Below, piece after piece: positions 922 through 30,254 of a stretch of 32,747 nt of DNA. Source of the stretch: a virus (Duplodnaviria > Heunggongvirae > Uroviricota > Caudoviricetes). The stretch is from the IMG/VR virus record IMGVR_UViG_2636415906_000003, positions 1 through 32,747 of that record. The stretch is one strand, 5' to 3'. The translations under genes were made by a program, and so were the position numbers. The notes beneath the pieces are model-generated. The model was not told the origin of the DNA. It did no database searches and saw only the letters and a program-made list of their open reading frames with translations. Position 1 is the first letter of the stretch. The number at the start of each line of letters is the position of its first letter.

Positions 922-1311
922 AATAATAATAGTAAAATGCTTAGCCCTGCTAATAATCGCCTAATCCAAACGCCTCATTCATGTTCTGGTACAGTCGCTC
1001 AAATGTACTTCAGATGCGCGGTTCGCTGATTTCCAGGACATTGTCGTCATTCAGTGACCTGTCCCGTGTATCACGGTCCTGCGAATTCATCAAGGAATGC
1101 ATTGCGGAGTGAAGTATCGAGTCACGCCATATTTCGCTATCAGGATTCTGTGTGATGGTTACATCGCCCGGCCCAGGGCTGTTTAGTCATCAGCGCTTTC
1201 TGACAGTGCTGAGATTTCAACCTGTTGCAGTAAAAATGAGTAGATATAAGGCAAGTGTGCTGCCAAACCCATCTTTTACGGGGTGAAGGTAGATTTCGTT
1301 TGAAGGGTATC

Positions 1312-1326
1312 TGGTGTCCCCTGCAG
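1312..1326. repeat. Prophage att core copy (attL-type): 15-bp exact direct repeat of the 3' end of tRNA-Arg argW
   Basis: tggtgtcccctgcag at 1312..1326 is identical to 31665..31679, the 3' terminal 15 nt of the tRNA on the minus strand. Flanking bases differ on both sides, so the repeat is exactly 15 bp. Confidence 0.75.
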
Positions 1327-1399
1327 ACATCTACTTGAAGCGGCAGGGGATTGATTGGAATGGTGTTTTTTAGATGTGAGAAATATTTTACCCGCTATT

Positions 1400-1600
1400 T
1401 TACCCATTGGCGCGGCTTAAGAGCTTATTTTTGAATTCACAATGGTCACGATATAACCATCTTGCTCGCCCGTGGATAACTTTGGCTTTAGGCAGGTCGC
1501 CGGACTTAATCCGGTCATAGATGAAGGTCTTACCGAAGCCAGTATCAGCCATGATGAATTTCAAATCAACCAGTGAATCAGGCTGTAGTTCGTGTTGCAT
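1400..1600 (-). CDS. torI: Prophage excisionase / recombination directionality factor, TorI/AlpA-like
   Basis: 66-aa ORF at the prophage end opposite the integrase. The translation (MQHELQPDSLVDLKFIMADTGFGKTFIYDRIKSGDLPKAKVIHGRARWLYRDHCEFKNKLLSRANG) matches my memory of E. coli TorI, the KplE1 excisionase. Confidence 0.7.
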   Translation of the reverse strand: MQHELQPDSLVDLKFIMADTGFGKTFIYDRIKSGDLPKAKVIHGRARWLYRDHCEFKNKLLSRANG

Positions 1601-1619
1601 GAGTGCTATCTCCGAATAG

Positions 1620-1635
1620 GGAATCGAACCTGCAA
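1620..1635. repeat. Second tRNA-derived segment: 16-bp exact copy of the argW T-arm region (equals 31679..31694)
   Basis: ggaatcgaacctgcaa is identical to the tRNA segment that directly follows the 15-bp core in argW. The flanking sequence does not fold as a tRNA. Confidence 0.6.
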
Positions 1636-1645
1636 ATCAGGCAAT

Positions 1646-1666
1646 AAAAAAACCGCATTGATGCGG
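1646..1666 (-). terminator. Rho-independent terminator on the minus strand, between ORF 1726..2070 and torI
   Basis: Hairpin ccgcattgatgcgg (1653..1666) directly followed on the minus-strand transcript by a run of 7 U (plus-strand A run 1646..1652). Confidence 0.4.
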
Positions 1667-1725
1667 CGATGGTAGGTCTGGATATCTTGATAAATGAAAA
1701 TGCCTCATCGAGTGTGAGGCTGTGG

Positions 1726-2070
1726 TTAGTCCTTGCGTAACTCGCTAATTCTTCTGTAAGTCTCTGGTGCTTTGTTTCCGTGTATCTTCATTTCAGACTT
1801 CAACAGAGCAACGAGGGAATCCCATTCGGTGAGGATGCCTTTGAATGCCGGAACGCGCTTTGCAACCTTGTCGAATGAATCTCTGATTTCTGGAATCTGC
1901 TCAACAAGTGCAACGCATCGTCTGAAATCGGCTGCGTCATGTGGAGCACCGAAGCTATGACCATAGATATTCTTTTTCAGTCCACATGCGATTGAGGCAA
2001 GAGTTGCGCTACTGATGCCAACATCGCCAGTAGATTGCCATTTCAAAACCTTCATAGCCAAATCTGACAT
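1726..2070 (-). CDS. Hypothetical prophage protein (114 aa)
   Basis: ORF with an upstream GGAGA Shine-Dalgarno (tggagacaagaaATG); no recognisable motif. Confidence 0.55.
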   Translation of the reverse strand: MSDLAMKVLKWQSTGDVGISSATLASIACGLKKNIYGHSFGAPHDAADFRRCVALVEQIPEIRDSFDKVAKRVPAFKGILTEWDSLVALLKSEMKIHGNKAPETYRRISELRKD

Positions 2071-2418
2071 TTCTTGTCTCCATAAAACAAAACTCGCCGT
2101 AGCGAGTTCAGATAAAAGAAAACCCGCACTCGGCGGGTTCGCATTCGTTCAAATTGCGTTTACTTCTTGGCGTTCTGTTCATCCATATCGATATACCATG
2201 GGTTGCTTCCCTTGGGCATGTTTAACGACTGCTCGCGATAGTATCTGATGCGCTCCATGAAATACTCGCGTGAGTGCTCAGGTTGCTCTCATGATACCTG
2301 CTCAGTGATAACAGGTATGTTAAGGCGCTCTCTGTACTCCATGCCTGATGCTGCAAGATCAACGTTTACCTTGTTCTGTTTTTCTTTCGATTTCTCGGCG
2401 ATATTATGCCTGACATTG

Positions 2419-2661
2419 TCAACCCGCCTCCTTCTGAACATAACGGTTATAAATCAGTCCCTGAGGGCCATAAGGAAGCGGGATGTGCAACTCCTCTGGT
2501 TCAGAAACTATCCATTCCCCGGCCATCTCCGCTGGAGAGGTAATGATAAGTTGTTTGCTAATAAAATGACCACTCCTCTCAACAACAAGCTTACCATCTT
2601 CATTAATAAAAGCGTGGATGTCAGGTGTGCTTCCACACTTGGTGATGCAGCGTTTGAACAT
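2419..2661 (-). CDS. Hypothetical prophage protein (about 80 aa; start taken at the internal ATG with SD)
   Basis: ORF 2419..2703; the ATG at 2661 is preceded by a GGGGAGA ribosome-binding site, the upstream ATG is not. Confidence 0.45.
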   Translation of the reverse strand: MFKRCITKCGSTPDIHAFINEDGKLVVERSGHFISKQLIITSPAEMAGEWIVSEPEELHIPLPYGPQGLIYNRYVQKEAG

Positions 2662-2787
2662 TTTGTGTCTCCCCATTTTATGGACGGGGTAATTATAACA
2701 CATTGAAATATAGTAATATTTGACGTAGATTTCTTTTGATCTATAAGCGATTTTTTAATGCTTTTAAGTTATAAATACTTGTTTTCA

Positions 2788-3459
2788 TCACCCATCTTGC
2801 TGCGGTGCTACTATTGAAAAGTGCTCACACCCTTTAGCCCAAATAGTTTTGATAGTTGTCCAACTGACTGGAACCTTGATTTCGATTCTCCCGCTACAGT
2901 CACAAGTTTCGCAATCATCATCACCAAAGCATTCCGGGCAGCTTATAAACGTAGTTTCTGAAAATTCACCGAATAGCACACCCTTAGCGCCGTTCTCGGC
3001 TGTTAGTCTCTTCGGCACCATGACCCAACCATCCGGAATTACCGGAGAGTTGCCGGGTTCTTTAATGTGCAAGCGAGGCTCACCATCTTTTGGCTCAGGC
3101 CACTGGCGCTCCATGTTGATCTTCAATTTATCTTCCATAGCAGCGGTAATTTCAGCATCGCTGATGCCAGCACGGCGCTGTGAATCCCACAACAGAAACT
3201 GCATATCAGCCCACTCGCTAAGATCGTCTGGTTCGGCTGCGGCTTCCAGTGCCTCTTTTGAGAGGTGTTTCAGTGGACCAATGGGGCCAACGCAGCCAAA
3301 TGTGGAGTCAGACCATTTGGCATGCTCGTGGCGAATCTGTTCGCGTTCCAGTGATGCCAGTGCAATCCGTGCCAGTTCCATTTGTTCGCCACGGGTAAGT
3401 CCGTTTTCAAGCGGATTTTTAATGAACAATTCAATACGTTCTTTGGTAATAGTGGTCAT
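2788..3459 (-). CDS. Conserved prophage protein, possibly DUF550/DUF551-type (sometimes annotated dATP/dGTP pyrophosphohydrolase); Cys-rich C-terminus
   Basis: 223-aa ORF with AAGGAG SD. The N-terminal MTTITKERIELFIKNP... resembles a domain I recall from E. coli prophage early regions; C-terminal CPECFGDDDCETCDC cysteine cluster. Confidence 0.55.
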   Translation of the reverse strand: MTTITKERIELFIKNPLENGLTRGEQMELARIALASLEREQIRHEHAKWSDSTFGCVGPIGPLKHLSKEALEAAAEPDDLSEWADMQFLLWDSQRRAGISDAEITAAMEDKLKINMERQWPEPKDGEPRLHIKEPGNSPVIPDGWVMVPKRLTAENGAKGVLFGEFSETTFISCPECFGDDDCETCDCSGRIEIKVPVSWTTIKTIWAKGCEHFSIVAPQQDG

Positions 3460-21601: not shown

Positions 21602-23017
21602 ATGGCTACGTGGCAACAGGGTATTAATTCTGGTGGTTTTCTGGCTGGCATCGGTACGCAAAATGAGAATGCGCCAAAGGCAAGCGACATTAACGCAACG
21701 CTTGGTCTGATCCGCGAAAACAATGAACTGGCTCGCTCAGGTGCAAATAACGTTGGTCTGACCGCGTTACGTGGTCTGGCTGGAGTTGCTGATATTTACA
21801 ATCAGGAACAGCAACAGAAAGCGATTAGTGCGTTCAATAAGGTTCATGCTGATGCATGGGCTTCTGGTGATCCATCTGGACTATTTAAGTTTGCCCAGGA
21901 AAATCCAGCGTTTGTTGCACAGGCACAACAGGCGTTTTCCGGTCTTAATGAGCAGCAACGCAACGATATGGGCGATTTAGCCATGAGGGCTAACGTCGCT
22001 CTTTCTCAGGGACCGGAAGCCTACAGTAAATTCATTACTGACAACAAGGACAGGTTAAATCGCGTGGGGGCGAATGCTGACTGGATGATTCAGACAGGTA
22101 TCCAGAATCCAGAGCAGCTATCACACATGCTGACTACTATGTCTCTCGGTGCGCTTGGACCAGAAAAGGCGTTTGCTGTTCAGGATAAGATGGCTGGTCG
22201 TGAAATTGACCGAGGCAGGCTGGCAGAGACAATCCGCAGCAATCAGGCTGGTGAAGCACTTCAGGCGAGAGGGCAAAACCTTTCCTATCAGTCAGCAATG
22301 ACTGGGCACAATATCGCAGCACAACGCTTGGCTCTGGATCAGCAAGAGTTCGGGTTTAAGATGCAGCAAGCGCAGGAAAAGGCTCAGCAGTTGATTAGTG
22401 AAGCACCTAAGCTGTCAGTAAACATGGAAAAAGGCATCGAGACGGCTGTAAACAATGCCACAGCATCATCAAACTCAGCCAATTCTATGAGTGCGCTTGC
22501 TCAACAGTTCAGAGCAGAAAAACCAACGACAGGTTTGTTCGGTAACGCACAGAACATGTTCGCAAAACTTACCGGAAGCGATACAACATTGCGTGATTTG
22601 CGCATTCGCCAAAATGCCCTTGTTAACAGTCAGGTTCTTAAATTCCTACCTCCCGGCCCAGCAACGGATAAAGACGTTGAGATCGTTCGACAGGGTGCGC
22701 CAACTGACATGGATAACCCTGAGACGGTCGCAAGATGGCTTGATGCAATGGCAAACCTTGAGCGACGAAACGCGCAGTTTAATGAGTTTAAAGCCGAGTG
22801 GATGAGCGCGAATGGCAACCCTGGACAATCGCGTAATGGCGGTCAGATATTGGGGTTGGATGTTAAAAAAGGTGAATCATTGGGGAGTGCCGTTAAGCGG
22901 TATATGTCAATGAATACTGACGCAGCGCCAGCACAAGATTCGACACCTTCAGGAGAACCACGGAATCAGGTTGGATCATATACCTCAAAATCAGGCATTC
23001 AATTTACGGTGGAATGA
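21602..23017 (+). CDS. Ejection protein (P22 gp20-like)
   Basis: 471-aa ORF in the gp20 position, the same length as P22 gp20. Confidence 0.8.
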
Positions 23018-24846
23018 TGAAAGTAACTGCAAACGGTAAGACATTTACCTTTCCTGATGGTACGAGCACCGAAGATATTGGCACCGCCATTGATGAGTAT
23101 TTTGCTGGTCAGGCTGTTCAGCAACAAACAGTTAATCAGGCCAATAATGCACCAACACGGGAAGAACCATCATTGATGCAACAAGCTGGCGATTGGCTCA
23201 CTGGTGGTCAAAGTGCAGGGCAAATTGCAGAACAGGCTGGCCGTGGTCTGGTAAACATACCATTTGACGTATTGCAGGGTGGTGCAAGTCTGATTAATGC
23301 AATCAGTCAGGGGCTTGGTGGGCCAAAAGTATTGGATGATGTTTATCGTCCAGTAGACAGACCGACAGACCCCTACGCGCAAGCCGGTGAAACAATTGGT
23401 GGGTATTTAGTTCCAGGAGTTGGAACGGCAGGAAGCATGGCTATTGGATCACTGGCAGAGGCCGCAAATCAGAAAGGCGATTTCGCACAAAATGCAACTA
23501 AAAATGCCGGAGTTAACCTTGCCGCTCAGGGGGTTCTTTCCGCAGCAGCAAAGGGAATAGGGCGTGGAATTACTGCTGTTCGTGGCGAAATATCACCAGC
23601 AGATCAGCAATTGCTCAAGCGTGCCGCTGCGGCAGATGTACCAGTTATGACATCGGATGTAGTTCCTCCAAAAACAAAACTTGGCAATCAACTGCAGGGT
23701 TACTCAGAAGGAGTCATAGCTGGGACTGGACCAATGAGAGCCGCACAGCAGGATGCTAGAACCAAGCTTGTTAATCGCTTCACCGAAAAATACGGCGACT
23801 ACGATCCATCTGTAGTCGTTGATAGTCTAAAGTCAGGCGTTGCAAGGGAAAAATCGTTAGCCAAGTCAAAACTAAACAACCTGTCAGGAAGAATGGTTGG
23901 AAAGCCAGTTGATACAAGTGGCGCCATAAGAGCTATCGACGGAGCAGTAAACGAACTTGGGAAACTTAAAGGTGTTTCTGACACCCAGACCATTTCTGCG
24001 CTTAATGATTATAAGAATGCCATTCAGGAGATAACAAATGGAGATGATGCCTTTGAGTTACTTGATAAGCTGAGAACTCAGTTCCGCATTGACGTAAAAG
24101 GCGATCGTACAGTTCTGCCATCAATGTCGCAAACAATGGTCGACAGGGTCTACAACTCGCTAACCAATAGCCTTAGTAAATCTATAGCGAAAGGACTTAG
24201 CCCAAAAGATGCTTCAGCATGGAGAGCGGGAAAAGCTGATTATGCAAAAATGGCAACACATGCAACTCAAACGCGCCTTAAAAACGTTCTAAACAAAGGA
24301 GATTTAACTCCCGAGGCTGTAAATACCATTGTGTATGGACAATATGGGTCAGATATAGCTCGATTGTACGGGAAACTCGATCAAAAAGGTAAAGACATGC
24401 TAAGGGCGGCATATATCAGCAAAATAGCTGACAAGGTAGGTGACAGCCCTCAGAAAATGATGACCGAGCTTGGCAAGCTGCAAAAACAAGCAAATGGTCA
24501 GGTGTTTAAAACTGTATTTGGTGGGAAGAACGGAAAAGAGATAGAGGGGATGTTATCTATTCTCGATGCTACCAAAAGAGCATCTGAGGCTAATGTTGTG
24601 ACGAAGACTGGCATGACACTCGCGCCTTTGGTAAGGGTTATTGGTAACCTAAAAACCGGAGGCGCGCTATTGGCTGGGGAAACAGGGATTGGCCTTATGT
24701 CGAGGGTTTATGAAAGCCCTATGGCTAGGAATGCGCTCTTACGTCTGGCAAACACTAAAGCTGGAACGCCAGCTTATGAAAGAGCGCTGAATAACGCCGC
24801 AAATGCCATCAGACCAATACTTGCCAATGATGCAACTGATCGCTAA
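23014..24846 (+). CDS. Ejection protein (P22 gp16-like)
   Basis: 610-aa ORF in the gp16 position, its start overlapping the gp20 stop. Confidence 0.8.
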
Positions 24847-24867
24847 GGGTTGATGTCATGGATGTTG

Positions 24868-25507
24868 TTAATTGCGAATGGAATCGCGGAACTCTTTGCT
24901 TGATAGAAAAGGATCTGTTCTCCTTAACTCATCATAGTTTTTATTAAACTTTCTTGCTTCACCTGGGTATCTGTTGAACAAAACATTGCAGAAAAAAGAG
25001 AGCAATAACTCACATATGAATGCTAATACCCTGAAAAATAAAGGTATAAAAAGAAGGGAAGGTTCATTGAAGTCTCTATTCCAAACAAAATAGACAATCA
25101 TCCCGACATACCAAATTGATATCCCTATACTGATGATTGTTCCAACAGAGGTAACTACGATCCCGATTAAGTCGGACAGTCTGTTTGCCAGTAACTCATT
25201 TGAGTATCTTGCAATCATATACCGCCAACATTTTGCAATATCATCCTGATCTGTAGAGTCTTCTGGAATAGCTAGGCTTCTACATATTGAAGTAGCTCTT
25301 TTTTTCTCAACTCTTTTTGAGAGCCATCCATTAAAGAGATACATCAACACCTGCGTTGCTATTCCTGCACCAAGTGATATCAAAGACATCCCCAAAAATC
25401 GCCATCCTGGAGATAGTGACTGGTACTGCCAAAACAAAAAAAATTAAAAAACCCAATGAGCCTATGACATAGGCTGATGTATCGCTATATATATCTATTT
25501 TTTTCAT
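24868..25507 (-). CDS. Polytopic membrane protein at the sieA position (candidate superinfection exclusion protein); possibly frameshifted
   Basis: An ATG-initiated 58-codon frame (25507 down to 25331) encodes one predicted TM helix; a second frame (reaching 25437 down to 24868) encodes three more. The frames overlap around T5/G4 runs near 25385..25400. AT-rich. Confidence 0.45.
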
Positions 25508-25557
25508 TGAGTAGCCACTCCTTAGTTTTGAGCAGAACACCGGATGATAATGTTTTG

Positions 25558-25809
25558 TTATGTGTCTTTTGGGATTCTATCCAGTAACTCGTTGGAAATT
25601 TTATCAAGTAAAGATTTTATTTGTTTAAGATCTAATGATTTGTCTACTGATGAGACGTCATATGATAACGCATCCTCAAGAATTTGAACTATCTCTGAGT
25701 TCATAGATCGACCGTTTCGTTTAGCCCTTTCCGCAATAGCACTACGCATGCCGTCAGGCATTCTAACCGTAAATCTTTCTATGAAATTTGATTCGTCTTT
25801 TTCTGACAT
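25558..25809 (-). CDS. mnt: Mnt-like ribbon-helix-helix repressor
   Basis: RHH N-terminus aligning with P22 Mnt (FTVRMPDGMRSAIAERAKRNGRSMNSEIVQILEDALS against FNFRMPMEVREKLKFRAEANGRSMNSELLQIVQDALS); divergent from the arc-like gene. Confidence 0.65.
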   Translation of the reverse strand: MSEKDESNFIERFTVRMPDGMRSAIAERAKRNGRSMNSEIVQILEDALSYDVSSVDKSLDLKQIKSLLDKISNELLDRIPKDT

Positions 25810-25892
25810 TTTCTTATTCGCAAGGCATATGAGCAATAAAAAACACAGTAGCATCATATTGACATTATGAGCAATGGCATCATAATGGTGTC

Positions 25893-25913
25893 ATGACATC
25901 ATGGTGATGTCAT
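25893..25913. promoter_or_regulatory. Operator-like perfect palindrome between the divergent mnt-like and arc-like genes
   Basis: atgacatca-tgg-tgatgtcat is a 21-bp palindrome, with further catcat / gtcatgac repeats in 25860..25925. Confidence 0.5.
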
Positions 25914-25929
25914 TATGACGGAGATATTG

Positions 25930-26106
25930 ATGATGAGCGATGTTCTTTACAGTGGTCGTAAAAGTCAGAGTTTCCAGCTTCGTTTGCCAGCGCGAATGAA
26001 GGAGGAGATCAGACGCGTAGCTGAAATGGATGGAATTTCTATCAACTCTGCGATTGTGCAGCGACTGGCTAAAAGCCTGAGAGAGGAAAGAGCTAATGCC
26101 CAGTAA
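25930..26106 (+). CDS. arc: Arc-like ribbon-helix-helix repressor
   Basis: 58-aa ORF with GGAG SD; SFQLRLPARMKEEIRRVAEMDGISINSAIVQRL aligns with P22 Arc (PQFNLRWPREVLDLVRKVAEENGRSVNSEIYQRV). Confidence 0.7.
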   Translation: MMSDVLYSGRKSQSFQLRLPARMKEEIRRVAEMDGISINSAIVQRLAKSLREERANAQ

Positions 26107-26179
26107 AAATAGTGAAGCCCGGCAGTGCGCGAACACAAACCGGGCCTCTATGTCAGTAACCGTATGCAAGGAAACTAAC

Positions 26180-26806
26180 ATGAATATTGTAGCAAAATCA
26201 GATTACAACTTCCACGGAGTTGAGTTGGTGCCCACCCGTGATATGCATGGTGTTTGGTTTACATCATCTAATATTGCATCTGCACTTAAATACGCAAATA
26301 GTCGTGCAGTAACAATGATTTATAACAAGTATAGCGATGAGTTTAGCGCCGGAATGACTCAGGTACTCGAAGTGAGTACCTCAGGAAATTATCGCAAAAA
26401 AGTGCGAGTTTTCTCACTACGCGGTGCCCACCTAATCGCGATGTTTGCTCGCACTCCGGTAGCCAAAGGGTTCCGCCGCTGGGTGCTGGATATTTTGGAT
26501 CGGCAGGCAGAATGCTCACCGATTGCAAAACAGTTTACTGACGAAGAACTGGTTAATCTCTGCTACTTACAATTGTGGATGGAGAAGAGTCAACAAATGT
26601 GCAAACACATCTACCCAGGAATGAAGCAAATTGGTTCTGAGCTTTCAGGAAGGATTTACGATATTGCATATGAGACTCGCTACATGTCAGAAGAAACCAA
26701 GAAATCGCTTCTTCGTGAAATGAAGAATCTTGGTACCAACAATTTTGTCGTAAAGAACGCTCAGCCAATGCTGGCAAAACTTCGCGGCGAGGAATGGATT
26801 CATTGA
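26180..26806 (+). CDS. ant: Antirepressor, AntA/Bro-N-type N-terminal domain protein
   Basis: Lies downstream of arc; PVAKGFRRWVLDILDRQAE aligns with the P22 Ant motif PEAKPFRRWVTSEVLPSIRQ. Start taken at ATG 26180 after an AAGGAAA SD. Confidence 0.65.
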   Translation: MNIVAKSDYNFHGVELVPTRDMHGVWFTSSNIASALKYANSRAVTMIYNKYSDEFSAGMTQVLEVSTSGNYRKKVRVFSLRGAHLIAMFARTPVAKGFRRWVLDILDRQAECSPIAKQFTDEELVNLCYLQLWMEKSQQMCKHIYPGMKQIGSELSGRIYDIAYETRYMSEETKKSLLREMKNLGTNNFVVKNAQPMLAKLRGEEWIH

Positions 26807-26893
26807 TTGGTGCACAGGACGGCGCAAAAGAAAACCGCCAGTGTGCTGCTGGCGGCCTATGTCACACCCTTACTACCACATAAGGAATGCCTA

Positions 26894-27622
26894 ATGACTT
26901 TTAAGAATGTAGCAAACATCGGATCCGTTGTCACGGATAAAACCATTGACAGCCAGCGCCTGCTTGAGATGGTAAATCAGGCTCGTAGACAGTGCGGTGA
27001 GCCGGAGGTTCGTAATAACAAATTCATCGAGAAAATTGAAGATGAATTGGATGGAGAGCACTACACAAAAAGTGTAGTGCAAAAAGCGAACAAAACTTCG
27101 ATGGTTATCATTGAGATGTCAATCAAGCAAGCATTGCGAGTTGCCGCTCGCGAGTCAAAAGCCGTTCGCCGCTCACTGGTAGACCAACTTGAAAGTATGC
27201 AAGAAGCGCACATTAAAAGCGGTAAATCAGCGAGTGGACTTGTTGAGTATCGTCAAGCGCGAACATTGAAAATGACGGTTGAAGCTGTTACCAATCTGTT
27301 CGATCTGATGCCAAATCTTGCGCCGGAGGCAAAGCAGACAGCGGCAGCAAGTATAATCAACCCGCTCGTTGGTTTTAATGCAATACCTCTTCCGGCAATA
27401 GAAGAGCATTACTACTCAGCAGGGGAGGTTGCAGAGCAGCTTGGAGTAACGGCCAACAAGATTGGTCGCATTGCTAACGCAAACAACCTCAAAACTGAGC
27501 AGTACGGGAAGTTCTTCTTGGATAAATCTGCGCATTCAAGCAAACAGGTGGAAGCATTCCGCTACAATGCGGAGGGTGTTAAAGCACTACAACACCTGAT
27601 TCATGGGAGCAATGTTGCATAA
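26894..27622 (+). CDS. Second antirepressor-like / phage regulatory domain protein
   Basis: 243-aa ORF from ATG 26894 (TAAGGAA SD), immediately after the first antirepressor gene. The domain assignment is tentative. Confidence 0.5.
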   Translation: MTFKNVANIGSVVTDKTIDSQRLLEMVNQARRQCGEPEVRNNKFIEKIEDELDGEHYTKSVVQKANKTSMVIIEMSIKQALRVAARESKAVRRSLVDQLESMQEAHIKSGKSASGLVEYRQARTLKMTVEAVTNLFDLMPNLAPEAKQTAAASIINPLVGFNAIPLPAIEEHYYSAGEVAEQLGVTANKIGRIANANNLKTEQYGKFFLDKSAHSSKQVEAFRYNAEGVKALQHLIHGSNVA

Positions 27623-27843
27623 TGGCAAAGAAAAGATATGGCATTATGCCGCCAAGAATCAAAGGAAGAGCCAGGGTAAAAGGAGATGCTGGAAGGTATC
27701 ACATTCTTGGAGTTCTGTGGCATGAGAGAGCTTTAATTTTAAGTAGACCTCATGGGTACATTGAAAAGGTATCTATAGATAGAGTAGAGATTCTTCCCCT
27801 TACACCTGAAGAAGAAGAAACTTACGGACTTTTTGATAACTAA
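27622..27843 (+). CDS. Small basic hypothetical protein (73 aa)
   Basis: ORF overlapping the upstream stop and followed by a terminator hairpin; AT-rich. Confidence 0.45.
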   Translation: MAKKRYGIMPPRIKGRARVKGDAGRYHILGVLWHERALILSRPHGYIEKVSIDRVEILPLTPEEEETYGLFDN

Positions 27844-27850
27844 CCAATTA

Positions 27851-27879
27851 AACCCGCTTAATCGCGGGTTTTTTCTTTT
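27851..27879 (+). terminator. Rho-independent terminator after the ant operon
   Basis: Hairpin aacccgc-ttaatc-gcgggtt (27851..27870) followed by ttttcttttc; it overlaps the 3' end of the convergent mnt-like gene. Confidence 0.55.
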
Positions 27880-28115
27880 CTAAGAATATCAGCCGCAACT
27901 TCTTTTACTCGTTCCGAGATTAATGAGGCAAGCCTCTCTTCTTCATCACGATACCCGCTTACAGGTGATGGTTTGGAGAGCGATTCTTCCATCGTAGCCA
28001 CAATTTCGGAATTGATAGACCTGTTATTCATTTTTGCACGTTGCTTAATCTTGGCGTGCAACTCGTGCGTAAGCCTCAAGTGGAACTGCGCCTCATCGTA
28101 TTTGCTGTACATCAT
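27858..28115 (-). CDS. Second Mnt-like ribbon-helix-helix repressor, divergent from the tailspike gene
   Basis: [17 protein letters not shown] matches P22 Mnt SKPSPVTGYRNDAERLA, with an RHH N-terminus ([10 protein letters not shown]). Start at ATG 28115 with a GGTGAGG SD. Confidence 0.7.
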
Positions 28116-28247
28116 CAATGCCTCACCAAATGGGTGGAATGGCATCGTAAAACCTACTGTACAAATCAACAATCGTACCGTTTCGGTATGCAACAAATAC
28201 CAACCGTAGCCATGCTGCGGCCATTCCTTGTATCTGGAGCAAATCAA

Positions 28248-30254
28248 ATGACAGATTCAATAAATGCCAATGTTGTAGTGAGTATGCCTTCGCAACTCTT
28301 CACTATGGCTCGTTCTTTTAAAGCTGTAGCCAATGGCAAAATTTATATCGGTAAAATTGACACTGACCCGGTAAATCCTGAAAACCAGATTCAGGTTTAT
28401 GTAGAGAATGAAGACGGCTCTCACGTTCCTGTTTCGCAACCAATCATCATTAACGCTGCCGGATATCCGGTATATAACGGGCAGATTGCCAAGTTCGTAA
28501 CTGTGCAAGGCCATTCTATGGCTGTTTATGATGCATACGGTGCGCAGCAGTTCTATTTTCCGAATGTGCTGAAGTATGATCCTGATCAGTTATCTATAAA
28601 ACTATCAAGTAATATTGGATACAAATACATTGGAATGGTAGAGAGCGCTAACTCCCTTAAAGATATACAAGGAATGTCGATATCTGATAAATTATATTTA
28701 AAATCATACGTATCCGGACTCGAACTTGGTGGTGGGTTTGTTGTAGCTGTAGACAAGTCAATTGCAGTTGATAACGTAATGGTTTTAGAAGGTAACGGTG
28801 TAAATTGGAAGAGAATAAACCCAAGCCTTGAGTTTTCTGTATATGACGCTGGTTACAGCGGCGCTGGGGATATTGCATTATTTATTAATAAAATAAACTC
28901 TCTAGGTTATGATTGCGTTGTTCCATGTAGTGGAGAATTCTCGTCTTTAATTGATATTGATTTCGCGAAGGGTGGGTTAAGAGGATCGAATAAATGCGTT
29001 TTAACTGAGATTAATGGGATATCAGGTGATTATGCAATTAGGTTAAGCAACTCTAATATTTCTTATGAAAATAGGGATGAAATAAATGCAACATCAATTT
29101 TAGATGGCATATCTTTTAAGATGCTAGGATCTAAAAAGATTTTACTTGGAGGTATTGGCACTGGTGAATTATCAGAGTTAAGAATAAGTAATTCTTCATT
29201 CATATCATCTGCTGGAATTGAGTTTCTTGATAATTCATATAGAATTTTATTTGACAAAGTAACAATATCAAGATGTCTAAACAACACAATTATATTTAAT
29301 TCTCCATCAAACTCAGGCGAGGTAATGACATTTAATAATTGTTGGGTTGTTGATAATGGAGGTCCATTGACAATTAGAAATGGTCAATTTATTTTTAACT
29401 GTTGCTCTATGCCATCAGGTAAGAAAGAAGGTTATTTTGATTCTACTGTTTTTATTGAAGATAACGCAACCGTTGTTTACTCAAGTGGAAATATTGAGTT
29501 TCAGCCAGGTCAAAGCTTTGTGGCGTTCTCTGCATCTGGAAGCACAAGAATAAGCATTAAAGATACAACGCTACTTACTCCCTCTGGATATAGTTCAGTT
29601 CCGTTTGTTGTAAATGATGATTCAGTACTTTCATTAACAAATTGCTCATTGCCTTTATTTGACCAAATGGATTTGGCGACAGGATCAGCAACTAGACAGG
29701 TAGTTGGAGGTAATAGTAAAAAAATAATGTCATATGGATGCTATCCACGATCTGGATTTATAACAACTCAGTGGGATAAAGGGAACATAGTTAGTCCATA
29801 CATAAATTCGCTATCAAATGGAAGTGGACAGTTTTTAAACTACTCTAACTGGAGCCTTCAACAAACTGGTTCAGGTGTTGTTACAGCAGGAACGGATTCT
29901 GATGTTCCAAATGATATTATGTTTTCCAGGTCTTTGTATGTAGCAATACCATCTATAGGAGCATCTGCAAAATTTTATCAGGAGTGCTCAGACTGCTCAC
30001 CAGGACGATATTTCCAGTTAGGTTTTTGGGCTAAGAATCAAGTGACAACAATCTCTGGTATTGAGTTTTTTGATAAAGAAGGGAACTCTGTTCAGGGAAA
30101 AGCAACATTTACAATTCCACTAGGCTCCACATGGAATTTCTACGCATTAATAGATATTGTTCCTCCTGGAGCAAGCAAAGTTAGGATTGATTTTGATGTT
30201 TCCGGTGAAGCAGGCTCTCTTCATTTGCATAATGTTATTTATGGGCTGATTTGA
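28248..30254 (+). CDS. Tailspike protein: P22 gp9-like N-terminal head-binding domain fused to a divergent beta-helix receptor-binding domain
   Basis: First ~115 aa closely match P22 gp9 ([48 protein letters not shown]...), with no recognisable P22 similarity beyond about residue 120. The remainder is AT-rich and Asn/Ser/Gly-rich. Start at ATG 28248 after a GGAG SD. Confidence 0.85.

Follow-up and report, generated by a model that had tools for sequence, protein, structure and literature searches.

Do two mnt-like repressor genes, one arc-like gene and two antirepressor-type genes that lie side by side in a prophage form a single regulatory circuit, or more than one? This question is raised by positions 25,558 to 28,247 of a stretch of 32,747 nucleotides (IMG/VR record IMGVR_UViG_2636415906_000003; the whole stretch is referred to here as the window), which belongs to a P22-like (Lederbergvirus) prophage with Escherichia phage JEP4 as its nearest sequenced phage. 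The region is bounded on the left by a gp16-type DNA-transfer gene (23014-24846) and on the right by the tailspike gene, meaning that homologues of P22 genes 16 and 9 flank it inside the late operon. The gp16-tailspike stretch has been named the 'ant moron' by Villafane, Casjens and colleagues, a term defined by position, and has been described as hypervariable, with ten types among sixteen genomes (PMC2629481). What the region represents is the variable ant moron (secondary immunity region) carried by an E. coli prophage of P22-like type. The first-pass annotation had read it as one enlarged immI circuit with two Mnt repressors. The explanation favoured here, with a probability of roughly 0.6, is a mosaic assembled from two regulatory modules: module 1 (25558-27871), which would work like P22 immI, and module 2 (27858-28188), a self-contained set of mnt2, its candidate promoter Pmnt2 and an operator, which would be anchored at the 5' border of the tailspike gene. 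The argument is built on gene content, homologies, site positions, conservation and covariation.

The two mnt genes and their palindromes

Every gene listed in the first-pass annotation is present, at or close to its stated position. Both mnt-like genes are arranged as the first-pass annotation had described, with mnt1 divergent from arc, and mnt2 convergent with the arc-ant operon and divergent from the tailspike gene, and the three ribbon-helix-helix (RHH) proteins all match the Pfam family Arc (Table 1). The annotated immI region of P22 (AF527608, with mnt, Pmnt/Pant, Omnt, Oarc, arc, sar and ant) was used as the reference. Mnt2 is 47% identical to P22 Mnt over 73 aa (residues 7-79), including the C-terminal LSKPSPVxGYR..ERLA, and has both the N-terminal RHH domain and the C-terminal region, the part of P22 Mnt that makes up the coiled coil for tetramerisation. 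The likeness of Mnt1 to P22 Mnt (55% identity over 38 aa, residues 12-49, BLAST) ends after the RHH domain; its C-terminal tail is a different sequence from that of P22 Mnt, yet it is conserved in full-length homologues of 81-84 aa. The Arc-like protein is 42% identical to P22 Arc (BLAST).

Loci with mnt2 were collected by scanning IMG/VR viral contigs with Mnt2, which yielded 80 contigs; the same scan of genome contigs gave only 3 loci, and the viral-contig scan is the informative one. The mnt2 reading frame is intact in all 80, at 65-100% identity. In 75 it adjoins, and is divergent from, the tailspike gene, the rest being a truncated contig or carrying insertions, and the gap between the two genes stays at ~132 bp across related contigs. 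On the opposite side of mnt2, the order mnt1-arc-ant1-ant2 of the window is found in 24 contigs, ant1-ant2 without an arc or mnt1 homologue in 22, and no ant or arc gene in 27. The claim of a single circuit with two Mnt repressors is thus not supported, as mnt2 and its palindrome make up a separate cassette.

The palindrome in the mnt2-tailspike gap is real, as the first-pass annotation had claimed, though only 5+3+5 in length. It is not significant alone, with at least one match in 21 of 100 shuffles, and becomes so because it is conserved and covaries in ~70 distinct related gaps. The TACC..GGTA form (TACCnTTTnGGTA) goes with the Mnt2 β-strand EAQFHLRL in nearly all of ~65 distinct gaps, and with the β-strand DPQFNLRL it is replaced by GACCACTGTGGTC. 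No second copy of the operator was found in the 32.7-kb window or in 89 loci, the site occurring once or never per related locus, and in the window the motif is absent from the surroundings of the ant promoter and operon. The hexamers of Pmnt2 are kept as TTGTGG / TATGAT in a diverged subfamily, and 10 nt separate the first base of the -35 from the palindrome centre, the same distance as in P22 Omnt/Pmnt (TTGAGA-17-TATCAT). Most likely, Mnt2 binds its 13-bp palindrome and regulates itself; no connection of Mnt2 to the ant operon is visible.

A different palindrome lies between mnt1 and arc. There, a Mnt-type RHH gene is divergent from an operon that opens with an Arc-type RHH gene followed by ant, which is the immI layout, and the Pant-like promoter is the predicted promoter for arc-ant1-ant2-orf73. 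The 'perfect 21-bp palindrome' noted earlier in this gap, here called O1, exists, but its perfect 9-bp arms surround a non-symmetric 3-bp core (ATGACATCA tgg TGATGTCAT). When up to three mismatches are allowed, the O1 pattern has two matches against 0.02 expected; the degenerate copy, O2, lies 19 bp to the left of O1 and overlaps the -10 of the Pant-like promoter and the -35 of Pmnt1. In related viral contigs that have the identical Arc β-strand SQSFQLRLP and the Mnt1 strand DRFNIRLP instead of ERFTVRMP, the O1 position is occupied by TTGGTTCTAGAACCAA, a perfect 16-bp palindrome, and a locus with the Mnt1 strand ERFTVRL retains O1-type arms (ATGACATCA..TGGTGTCA). The palindrome thus changes with the recognition strand of Mnt1 under an identical Arc, indicating that the site follows Mnt1 and not Arc, and O1 is probably the Mnt1 operator. 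The arc gene itself has GGAG 6 nt ahead of the 25930 ATG, and in E. coli NC22 the NCBI annotation pipeline (PGAP) calls a 174-nt coding sequence (CDS), one codon shorter than 25930-26106.

Several observations on these control gaps weigh against the two-module explanation. The match of Pmnt2 is weak (7/12) and was not reported by the scan. No Arc operator is assignable between the -35 and -10 of Pant. Three CATTATGA repeats were considered for this role and rejected; four copies were found against 1.9 expected, which is not significant, and the repeats are not conserved in a locus (L055) whose Arc β-strand is the same. In addition, the 21-bp length of O1 matches P22 Oarc and not the 17-bp Omnt, and O2 resembles O1, so binding of Arc to O1 or O2 is possible. 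Finally, PGAP/RefSeq calls mnt1 a pseudogene ('missing C-terminus') in E. coli NC22 (L091 3313-3459, equal to ~25662-25808 of the window). The gene is treated as intact because homologues of 81-84 aa that end in a similar tail occur widely in several genera, among them Salmonella, Citrobacter, Hafnia and Cronobacter, which suggests that it is intact despite the label.

The ant genes and their predicted antisense RNAs

Two consecutive antirepressor-type genes had been proposed downstream of arc. For ant1 this is borne out at the level of domains: the protein carries one of the Ant/KilAC Pfam domains (ANT PF03374, P22_AR_N/C), namely P22_AR_C, behind a Bro-N domain, and resembles P22 Ant only in the C-terminal 70 aa, at 27% identity. 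The product of ant2 has no Ant/KilAC Pfam domain and no similarity to P22 Ant was found; it is Ant-like by its fusion partners and predicted fold. It matches phrog_1726 'anti-repressor' over its full length (5e-101), and its more than 2000 homologues are essentially all labelled 'hypothetical', with no named or tested function among the family members close to it. A search of cluster representatives showed that the two halves of ant2 recombine independently. The N-terminal half (residues ~14-110) precedes KilAC/ANT domains in fusions, and the C-terminal half (residues ~105-240) follows Phage_pRha, ORF6N, KilA-N, P22_AR_N or Bro-N domains. The halves thereby fill the same N- and C-terminal slots as in the shuffled Bro/KilA/Rha/Ant regulators (Pfam Bro-N, KilA-N, Phage_pRha, ORF6N, ANT, P22_AR_N/C), of which ant1 is a member (Bro-N + P22_AR_C), with the difference that neither half of ant2 has a Pfam model. 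The AlphaFold model of ant2 (pLDDT 77) matches predicted viral antirepressor, KilA and Rha proteins with Foldseek E values of 4e-10 to 1e-4. Judged by fusion partners and predicted fold, ant2 belongs to the antirepressor domain-shuffling network and would be a second two-domain protein from the network of ant1, ending in a MerR-like winged helix.

It has to be weighed whether ant2 is a passenger of another kind, a DNA-binding regulator with a MerR/excisionase-type winged helix and not an antirepressor, in which case the hairpin upstream of it would merely stabilise or process the operon mRNA. With antirepressor models, ant2 reaches only low TM-scores (0.2-0.35), searches of Pfam, NCBIfam and PDB sequences gave no match, and the best solved-structure matches are DNA-binding domains, from which it follows that ant2 may be a DNA-binding regulator. 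These points count against the antirepressor assignment. However, both halves recombine only with antirepressor, Bro, KilA or Rha domains in the proteins checked, the top viral Foldseek matches are annotated as antirepressors, and the hairpin has its T-tail on the antisense strand only. The passenger explanation is considered doubtful, though not remote.

The hairpin in question was first reported as a stem-loop between the antirepressor genes. It is real (26835-26855), but is not a feature of the sense strand: its T-tail is present solely on the minus strand (AGGCCGCCAGCAGCACACTGGCGGTTT TCTTTTGCGC), because of which it is taken as a minus-strand intrinsic terminator, that of a probable sar-like RNA. 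It is flanked by plus-strand genes on both sides, and no gene on the minus strand is so placed as to need it. Across 24800-28500, 9 terminator-like sites were observed against 2.9 +/- 1.6 expected. The terminator is conserved in 21 of 21 distinct ant2 upstream regions, and the similarity to differing contexts upstream of ant2 stops exactly at its tail. A candidate minus-strand promoter, Psar2, lies inside the 5' end of ant2, 48 bp upstream of the terminator on that strand, and ant2 homologues of 65-74% identity retain its hexamers with a different spacer. From this terminator and promoter a sar-like RNA of ~78 nt, sar2, is predicted, and it is probably an antisense RNA over the ant2 start.

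The corresponding element ahead of ant1, sar1, is predicted to be a diverged homologue of the P22 sar antisense RNA. Its minus-strand fold has the same two hairpins as sar (-33.3 kcal/mol, z -6.2), and the pairing of its terminator hairpin is conserved through compensatory changes. The candidate promoter Psar1 is homologous to the annotated P22 Psar, with TGcTACAAT on the minus strand of the first ant1 codons, and TAGCAAA is invariant across ant1 homologues down to 48% identity. Against the description of sar as an antisense RNA of ~70 nt with two hairpins, running from the ant start codon across the ribosome-binding site to a terminator in the spacer upstream, the predicted sar1 agrees in synteny, alignment with P22, fold and extended -10, and the predicted sar2 in promoter and terminator.

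Some results speak against these RNAs. The fold of sar2 is barely better than that of shuffled sequence (z -2.0), and the -35 of Psar2 also encodes a conserved V-V-T, a possible cause of its conservation. The Rfam sar model RF00262, which scores 96 bits on P22 sar, finds neither sar1 nor sar2 in the window or in 111-bp slices with E values up to 10, placing both below the gathering score, and sar2 matches no Rfam family. The Rfam scan of the region and two small slices gave only weak minus-strand likeness to SymR, ctRNA and generic terminators; these were rejected as family memberships and taken only as the look of a small RNA (sRNA) 3' end. Across 24800-28500, 9 terminator-like sites were observed against 2.9 +/- 1.6 expected.

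The operon ends with orf73, which overlaps the ant2 stop codon by one base. This small open reading frame (ORF) had been described as basic, which is true of its N-terminal half alone (net charge ~+3, counted from the sequence). Its family is very small, comprising 8 protein clusters with identities of 79% or more. Of the loci with ant2, 29 have orf73 and 22 lack it, in otherwise similar prophages, and in the loci without it the same terminator comes after ant2. A PDB sequence search with orf73 gave nothing useful.

Table 1. Features of the region and its borders. Promoter scores (n/12) are matches to the consensus hexamers in a consensus scan, unless read from the sequence by eye.
Feature	Position	Strand	Remarks
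SieA-like superinfection-exclusion gene, frameshifted	24868..25506	-	phrog_7745 'SieA-like' 1.2e-20
Terminator-like hairpin downstream of mnt1	25459..25475	-	consensus scan; P22 t_mnt at the equivalent place
mnt1, RHH repressor, 83 aa	25558..25809	-	Pfam Arc PF03869 1.6e-17
Candidate Pmnt1, ATGCCA-16-TATGAT	25853..25880	-	scan 9/12; overlaps Pant-like promoter face to face
Pant-like promoter (predicted), TTGACA-16-CATAAT	25859..25886	+	scan 11/12, best of the region; position of P22 Pant
O2, degenerate second copy of the 21-bp site	25874..25894		two mismatches to the O1 pattern
O1, 9+3+9 palindrome	25893..25913		probable Mnt1 operator; starts 6 bp past the -10 hexamer
arc, Arc-like RHH repressor, 58 aa	25930..26106	+	Pfam Arc PF03869 1.1e-11; alternative ATG start 25915
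sar1, predicted diverged P22 sar homologue	26104..26179	-	alignable with P22 arc-ant spacer; covers ant1 ribosome-binding site
ant1, antirepressor-type protein	26180..26806	+	Pfam Bro-N 1.7e-09 and P22_AR_C 5.1e-14; phrog_245 'anti-repressor Ant' 2.9e-51
Candidate Psar1, TGGAAG-17-TGcTACAAT	26186..26214	-	extended -10; inside ant1 5' end; read from sequence
sar2, predicted antisense RNA, ~78 nt	26822..26899	-	from promoter and terminator; covers ant2 start codon and ribosome-binding site
sar2 intrinsic terminator (predicted)	26832..26858	-	10-pair stem, tail TCTTTTGC; core stem-loop 26835-26855
ant2, two-domain Ant-like protein	26894..27622	+	no Pfam domain; C-terminus a predicted MerR-like winged helix
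Candidate Psar2, GTGACA-17-TGcTACATT	26906..26934	-	scan 9/12 with TG; inside ant2 5' end
orf73, small accessory ORF	27622..27843	+	phrog_4977, function unknown
ant-operon terminator	27850..27871	+	8-pair stem, T-run; overlaps mnt2 3' end; P22 also terminates after ant
mnt2, full-length P22 Mnt homologue, 85 aa	27858..28115	-	Pfam Arc PF03869 4e-15
Candidate Pmnt2, TTGTTG-17-TACGAT	28144..28172	-	read from sequence, 7/12
Probable Mnt2 operator, TACCGTTTCGGTA	28176..28188		TACCG TTT CGGTA, 5+3+5
Conserved hairpin, CCGTAGC-CAT-GCTGCGG	28204..28220	+	upstream of tailspike ribosome-binding site; function unknown
Tailspike gene	28248..30254	+	Pfam Head_binding 1.3e-65; right-hand boundary of the region

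The comparison of the region with P22 immI made in the first-pass annotation is apt, since the annotated P22 region has the same gene order and the promoter and operator geometry that is predicted for the window. In both, the system lies between genes 16 and 9 with sieA upstream, a Mnt-type gene is divergent from arc-ant, and the promoters, candidates in the window, overlap face to face, with a palindrome beginning 6 bp after the Pant -10 (TTGACA, 17 bp, TATATT, 6 bp, Omnt in P22; TTGACA, 16 bp, CATAAT, 6 bp, palindrome in the window). The arc-ant spacers are alignable and fold into a sar-type double hairpin, predicted for the window, and a terminator lies ahead of the tailspike gene. The differences are that the Mnt beside Pant in the window shares only the RHH domain with P22 Mnt, that the probable operator is 21 bp instead of 17 bp and has a second copy, and that ant1 carries Bro-N instead of P22_AR_N. 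In addition, the window has a second Ant-like gene with its own putative antisense element as well as orf73, the true Mnt homologue stands at the far end of the region with its own probable operator, and the Rfam sar model detects P22 sar and neither RNA of the window.

Possible roles of the mnt2 cassette

The mechanism proposed for the two modules is inferred from sequence, from every instance of DNA binding to the two RNAs and the targets of Ant1 and Ant2. In module 1, the strong Pant-like promoter would drive arc, ant1, ant2 and orf73. In a lysogen, Mnt1 made from the overlapping divergent promoter would bind the 9+3+9 palindrome at +1 to +21 and shut the operon off, and it probably also binds the weaker O2 copy over the -10. 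After infection or derepression, Arc would limit the burst of operon expression. Each ant gene may be held down further by its own short antisense RNA, which would start just inside the ant coding sequence, cover the ribosome-binding site and end at the terminator in the upstream spacer. In module 2, Mnt2, the true homologue of P22 Mnt, would bind its own palindrome, which immediately precedes the -35 of Pmnt2, an arrangement shared with P22. The likeliest roles of Mnt2 would be autoregulation and action in trans on incoming phages with a matching operator.

A bolder version of this proposal, which is tentative, holds that the mnt2-operator cassette is an autonomous and selectively maintained regulator that many P22-like phages, also ones lacking an antirepressor, carry at the 5' border of the tailspike gene. 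In these phages it might gate tailspike transcription, or act in trans as an 'anti-antirepressor' immunity against phages with a matching operator. In the same proposal, the ant genes would travel as self-contained units of antisense RNA and ant.

Control of the tailspike gene by Mnt2 appears unlikely. In this explanation, a rightward promoter derived from Pant would point into gene 9 with the operator covering its start site, or else read-through would be stopped by Mnt2 on the DNA, so that the tailspike gene would be repressed in lysogens and timed in infection. The gap does have the P22 Pant/Pmnt/Omnt layout with candidate face-to-face promoters (rightward ATGGCA-16-TGtACAAAT, read by eye), mnt2 nearly always keeps its place beside the tailspike gene, and the P22 ant region is thought to influence tailspike levels via transcription termination (PMC2629481). 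However, the search of the gap for a convincing promoter towards the tailspike gene yielded degenerate candidates only: the rightward promoter reaches at most 8/12, has both members of the critical -11A/-7T pair in no register and was not reported by the scan. The homologous hexamers of phage L (TCGGCA, TATATC) differ from those of P22 by changes of the down type. As this Pant-derived promoter is only vestigial by sequence, tailspike control is a minority rival. Furthermore, HK620-type phages share the tailspike leader sequence from 28203 onward without any mnt2, indicating that the tailspike gene does not need the mnt2 cassette. Within this leader, the pairing of the hairpin at 28204..28220 is preserved through changes across relatives.

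Some loci have an enlarged mnt2-tailspike gap (L012 3316-3858, also L018 and L022), in which a reverse-oriented ORF of 180 aa is inserted directly behind codon five of the tailspike gene, and the tailspike gene then uses a new start codon. The ORF has HNH-like motifs by eye and is a candidate homing endonuclease. The ORF lies at the tailspike 5' end, and the idea that the enlarged gap holds a gene driven from the operator was rejected.

The enlarged immI circuit, in which Mnt2 would serve as a second maintenance repressor of the arc-ant operon with redundant or two-level control of Pant or ant2, is improbable. It could account for the convergence of mnt2 with the ant operon and their shared terminator, for the position of ant2, which directly adjoins the mnt2 3' end wherever it is present in the 80 related loci, and for CUS-3, which also has two mnt genes beside one ant. 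The recognition strands of the two repressors differ, though (Mnt2 EAQFHLRL, Mnt1 ERFTVRM), and the Mnt2 palindrome, wherever it occurs, is always in the mnt2-tailspike gap. The ant1-ant2 spacer contained neither a plus-strand promoter nor a palindrome in the scans, and 27 of the 80 loci retain mnt2 without any ant or arc gene. The last alternative, that mnt2 is a decaying remnant of an older immI with no present function, which is one of two possibilities raised for phage L mnt (PMC8022706), would suit the decayed look of its Pant partner promoter, the many carriers without ant and the genetically immI-negative phage L, but is very improbable given an ORF that is intact in every one of the viral contigs, the conserved ribosome-binding site, promoter hexamers and gap length, and a palindrome and recognition strand that change together, the opposite of decay.

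Mosaic relatives and modular evolution

Hypervariable ant morons, mnt genes without ant and the two mnt genes of CUS-3 are already known (PMC2629481; PMC8022706), and several of these relatives resemble one part of the region each. The Mnt-only morons of phage L/ST64T and Sf101/IME10 are alike in having mnt divergent from the tailspike gene, a similar gap and a palindrome in the same place, which is the 17-bp AAGACCACCGTGGTCTT in phage L, close to P22 AGGTCCACGGTGGACCT, and TACCATTTCGGTA in Sf101. They lack the arc-ant operon, whereas the window has a complete immI-like module between gp16 and the mnt2 cassette. The E. coli HS prophage 'HS-1' and JEP4 share the ant1-ant2-orf73-mnt2-tailspike block at ~91-99% protein identity, with ant1 at only 76% in JEP4 (PMC2629481). 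In place of mnt1 they have a 190-aa gene annotated 'repressor protein C2' (C2-like; L001 3093-4007 in JEP4), and in place of arc an unrelated RHH protein of 57 aa with 11% identity to P22 Mnt. Phage CUS-3 also has two mnt paralogues with an antirepressor gene beside the tailspike gene; there, the mnt genes form a tandem pair to one side of ant, and the annotation has no arc.

One contig documents how these forms may be connected. The protein P0285 (L095 4001-4246, GCA_050033335.1) is a natural hybrid in which the N-terminal half of Mnt2 is joined to the C-terminal half of Mnt1; at the DNA level, window positions 25518-25707 are joined directly to 28000-28592. In that contig the arc-ant1-ant2-orf73 block is deleted, and the hybrid gene and the tailspike gene are divergent. 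Therefore, the two mnt genes act as direct repeats that flank an excisable cassette. The hybrid is the product expected from recombination between mnt paralogues on the same strand, which would provide one route from full to Mnt-only morons.

In three Salmonella contigs (L092-L094, ~1000-3250), a mnt-like gene is divergent from a 53-aa ORF that is also present in locus L080, and this ORF is followed by a Bro-N antirepressor-type gene and then a second gene (with an ORF6N domain, or of 248 aa). The block is embedded in a long-tail gene cluster (tape-measure, tail-terminator). As a result, the layout of two genes after arc is not limited to P22-like phages.

The arrangement as a whole is ordinary and widespread in E. 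coli prophages, with a few new details. The same layout is found repeatedly across many E. coli prophages, and the chromosomes of E. coli NC22 and XB2 contain the same DNA at ~100% identity. Among 5426 complete E. coli genomes, 472 have a match to part of the region, 13 of them over at least 80% of its length. The SieA-like gene upstream (24868-25540) has one extra A near 25431-25434. It reads CCAAAAC there, and the CCAAAC of E. coli NC22 belongs to a 212-aa CDS that PGAP calls intact. The frameshifted gene could be a pseudogene or reflect a sequencing error. PADLOC returned nothing meaningful on the region.

Repressor-operator recognition and antisense control have a textbook example in P22 immI. 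Only this P22 version has been studied, and the region differs strongly from phage to phage (PMC2629481). The relatives described here provide natural specificity swaps, with two Mnt1 strands that go with two palindromes under an identical Arc and two Mnt2 strands that go with two palindromes, and the Mnt2/Mnt1 hybrid protein adds further natural material of this kind. The results suggest a function for mnt cassettes that lack an ant partner, which would then not be debris, and they suggest that a sar-like RNA can arrive together with a second antirepressor-type gene. The general picture of how such regions work is unchanged. If the mnt2 cassette does prove to be an autonomous and selectively maintained regulator, this would answer the question of why phages without ant, such as L and ST64T, keep mnt.

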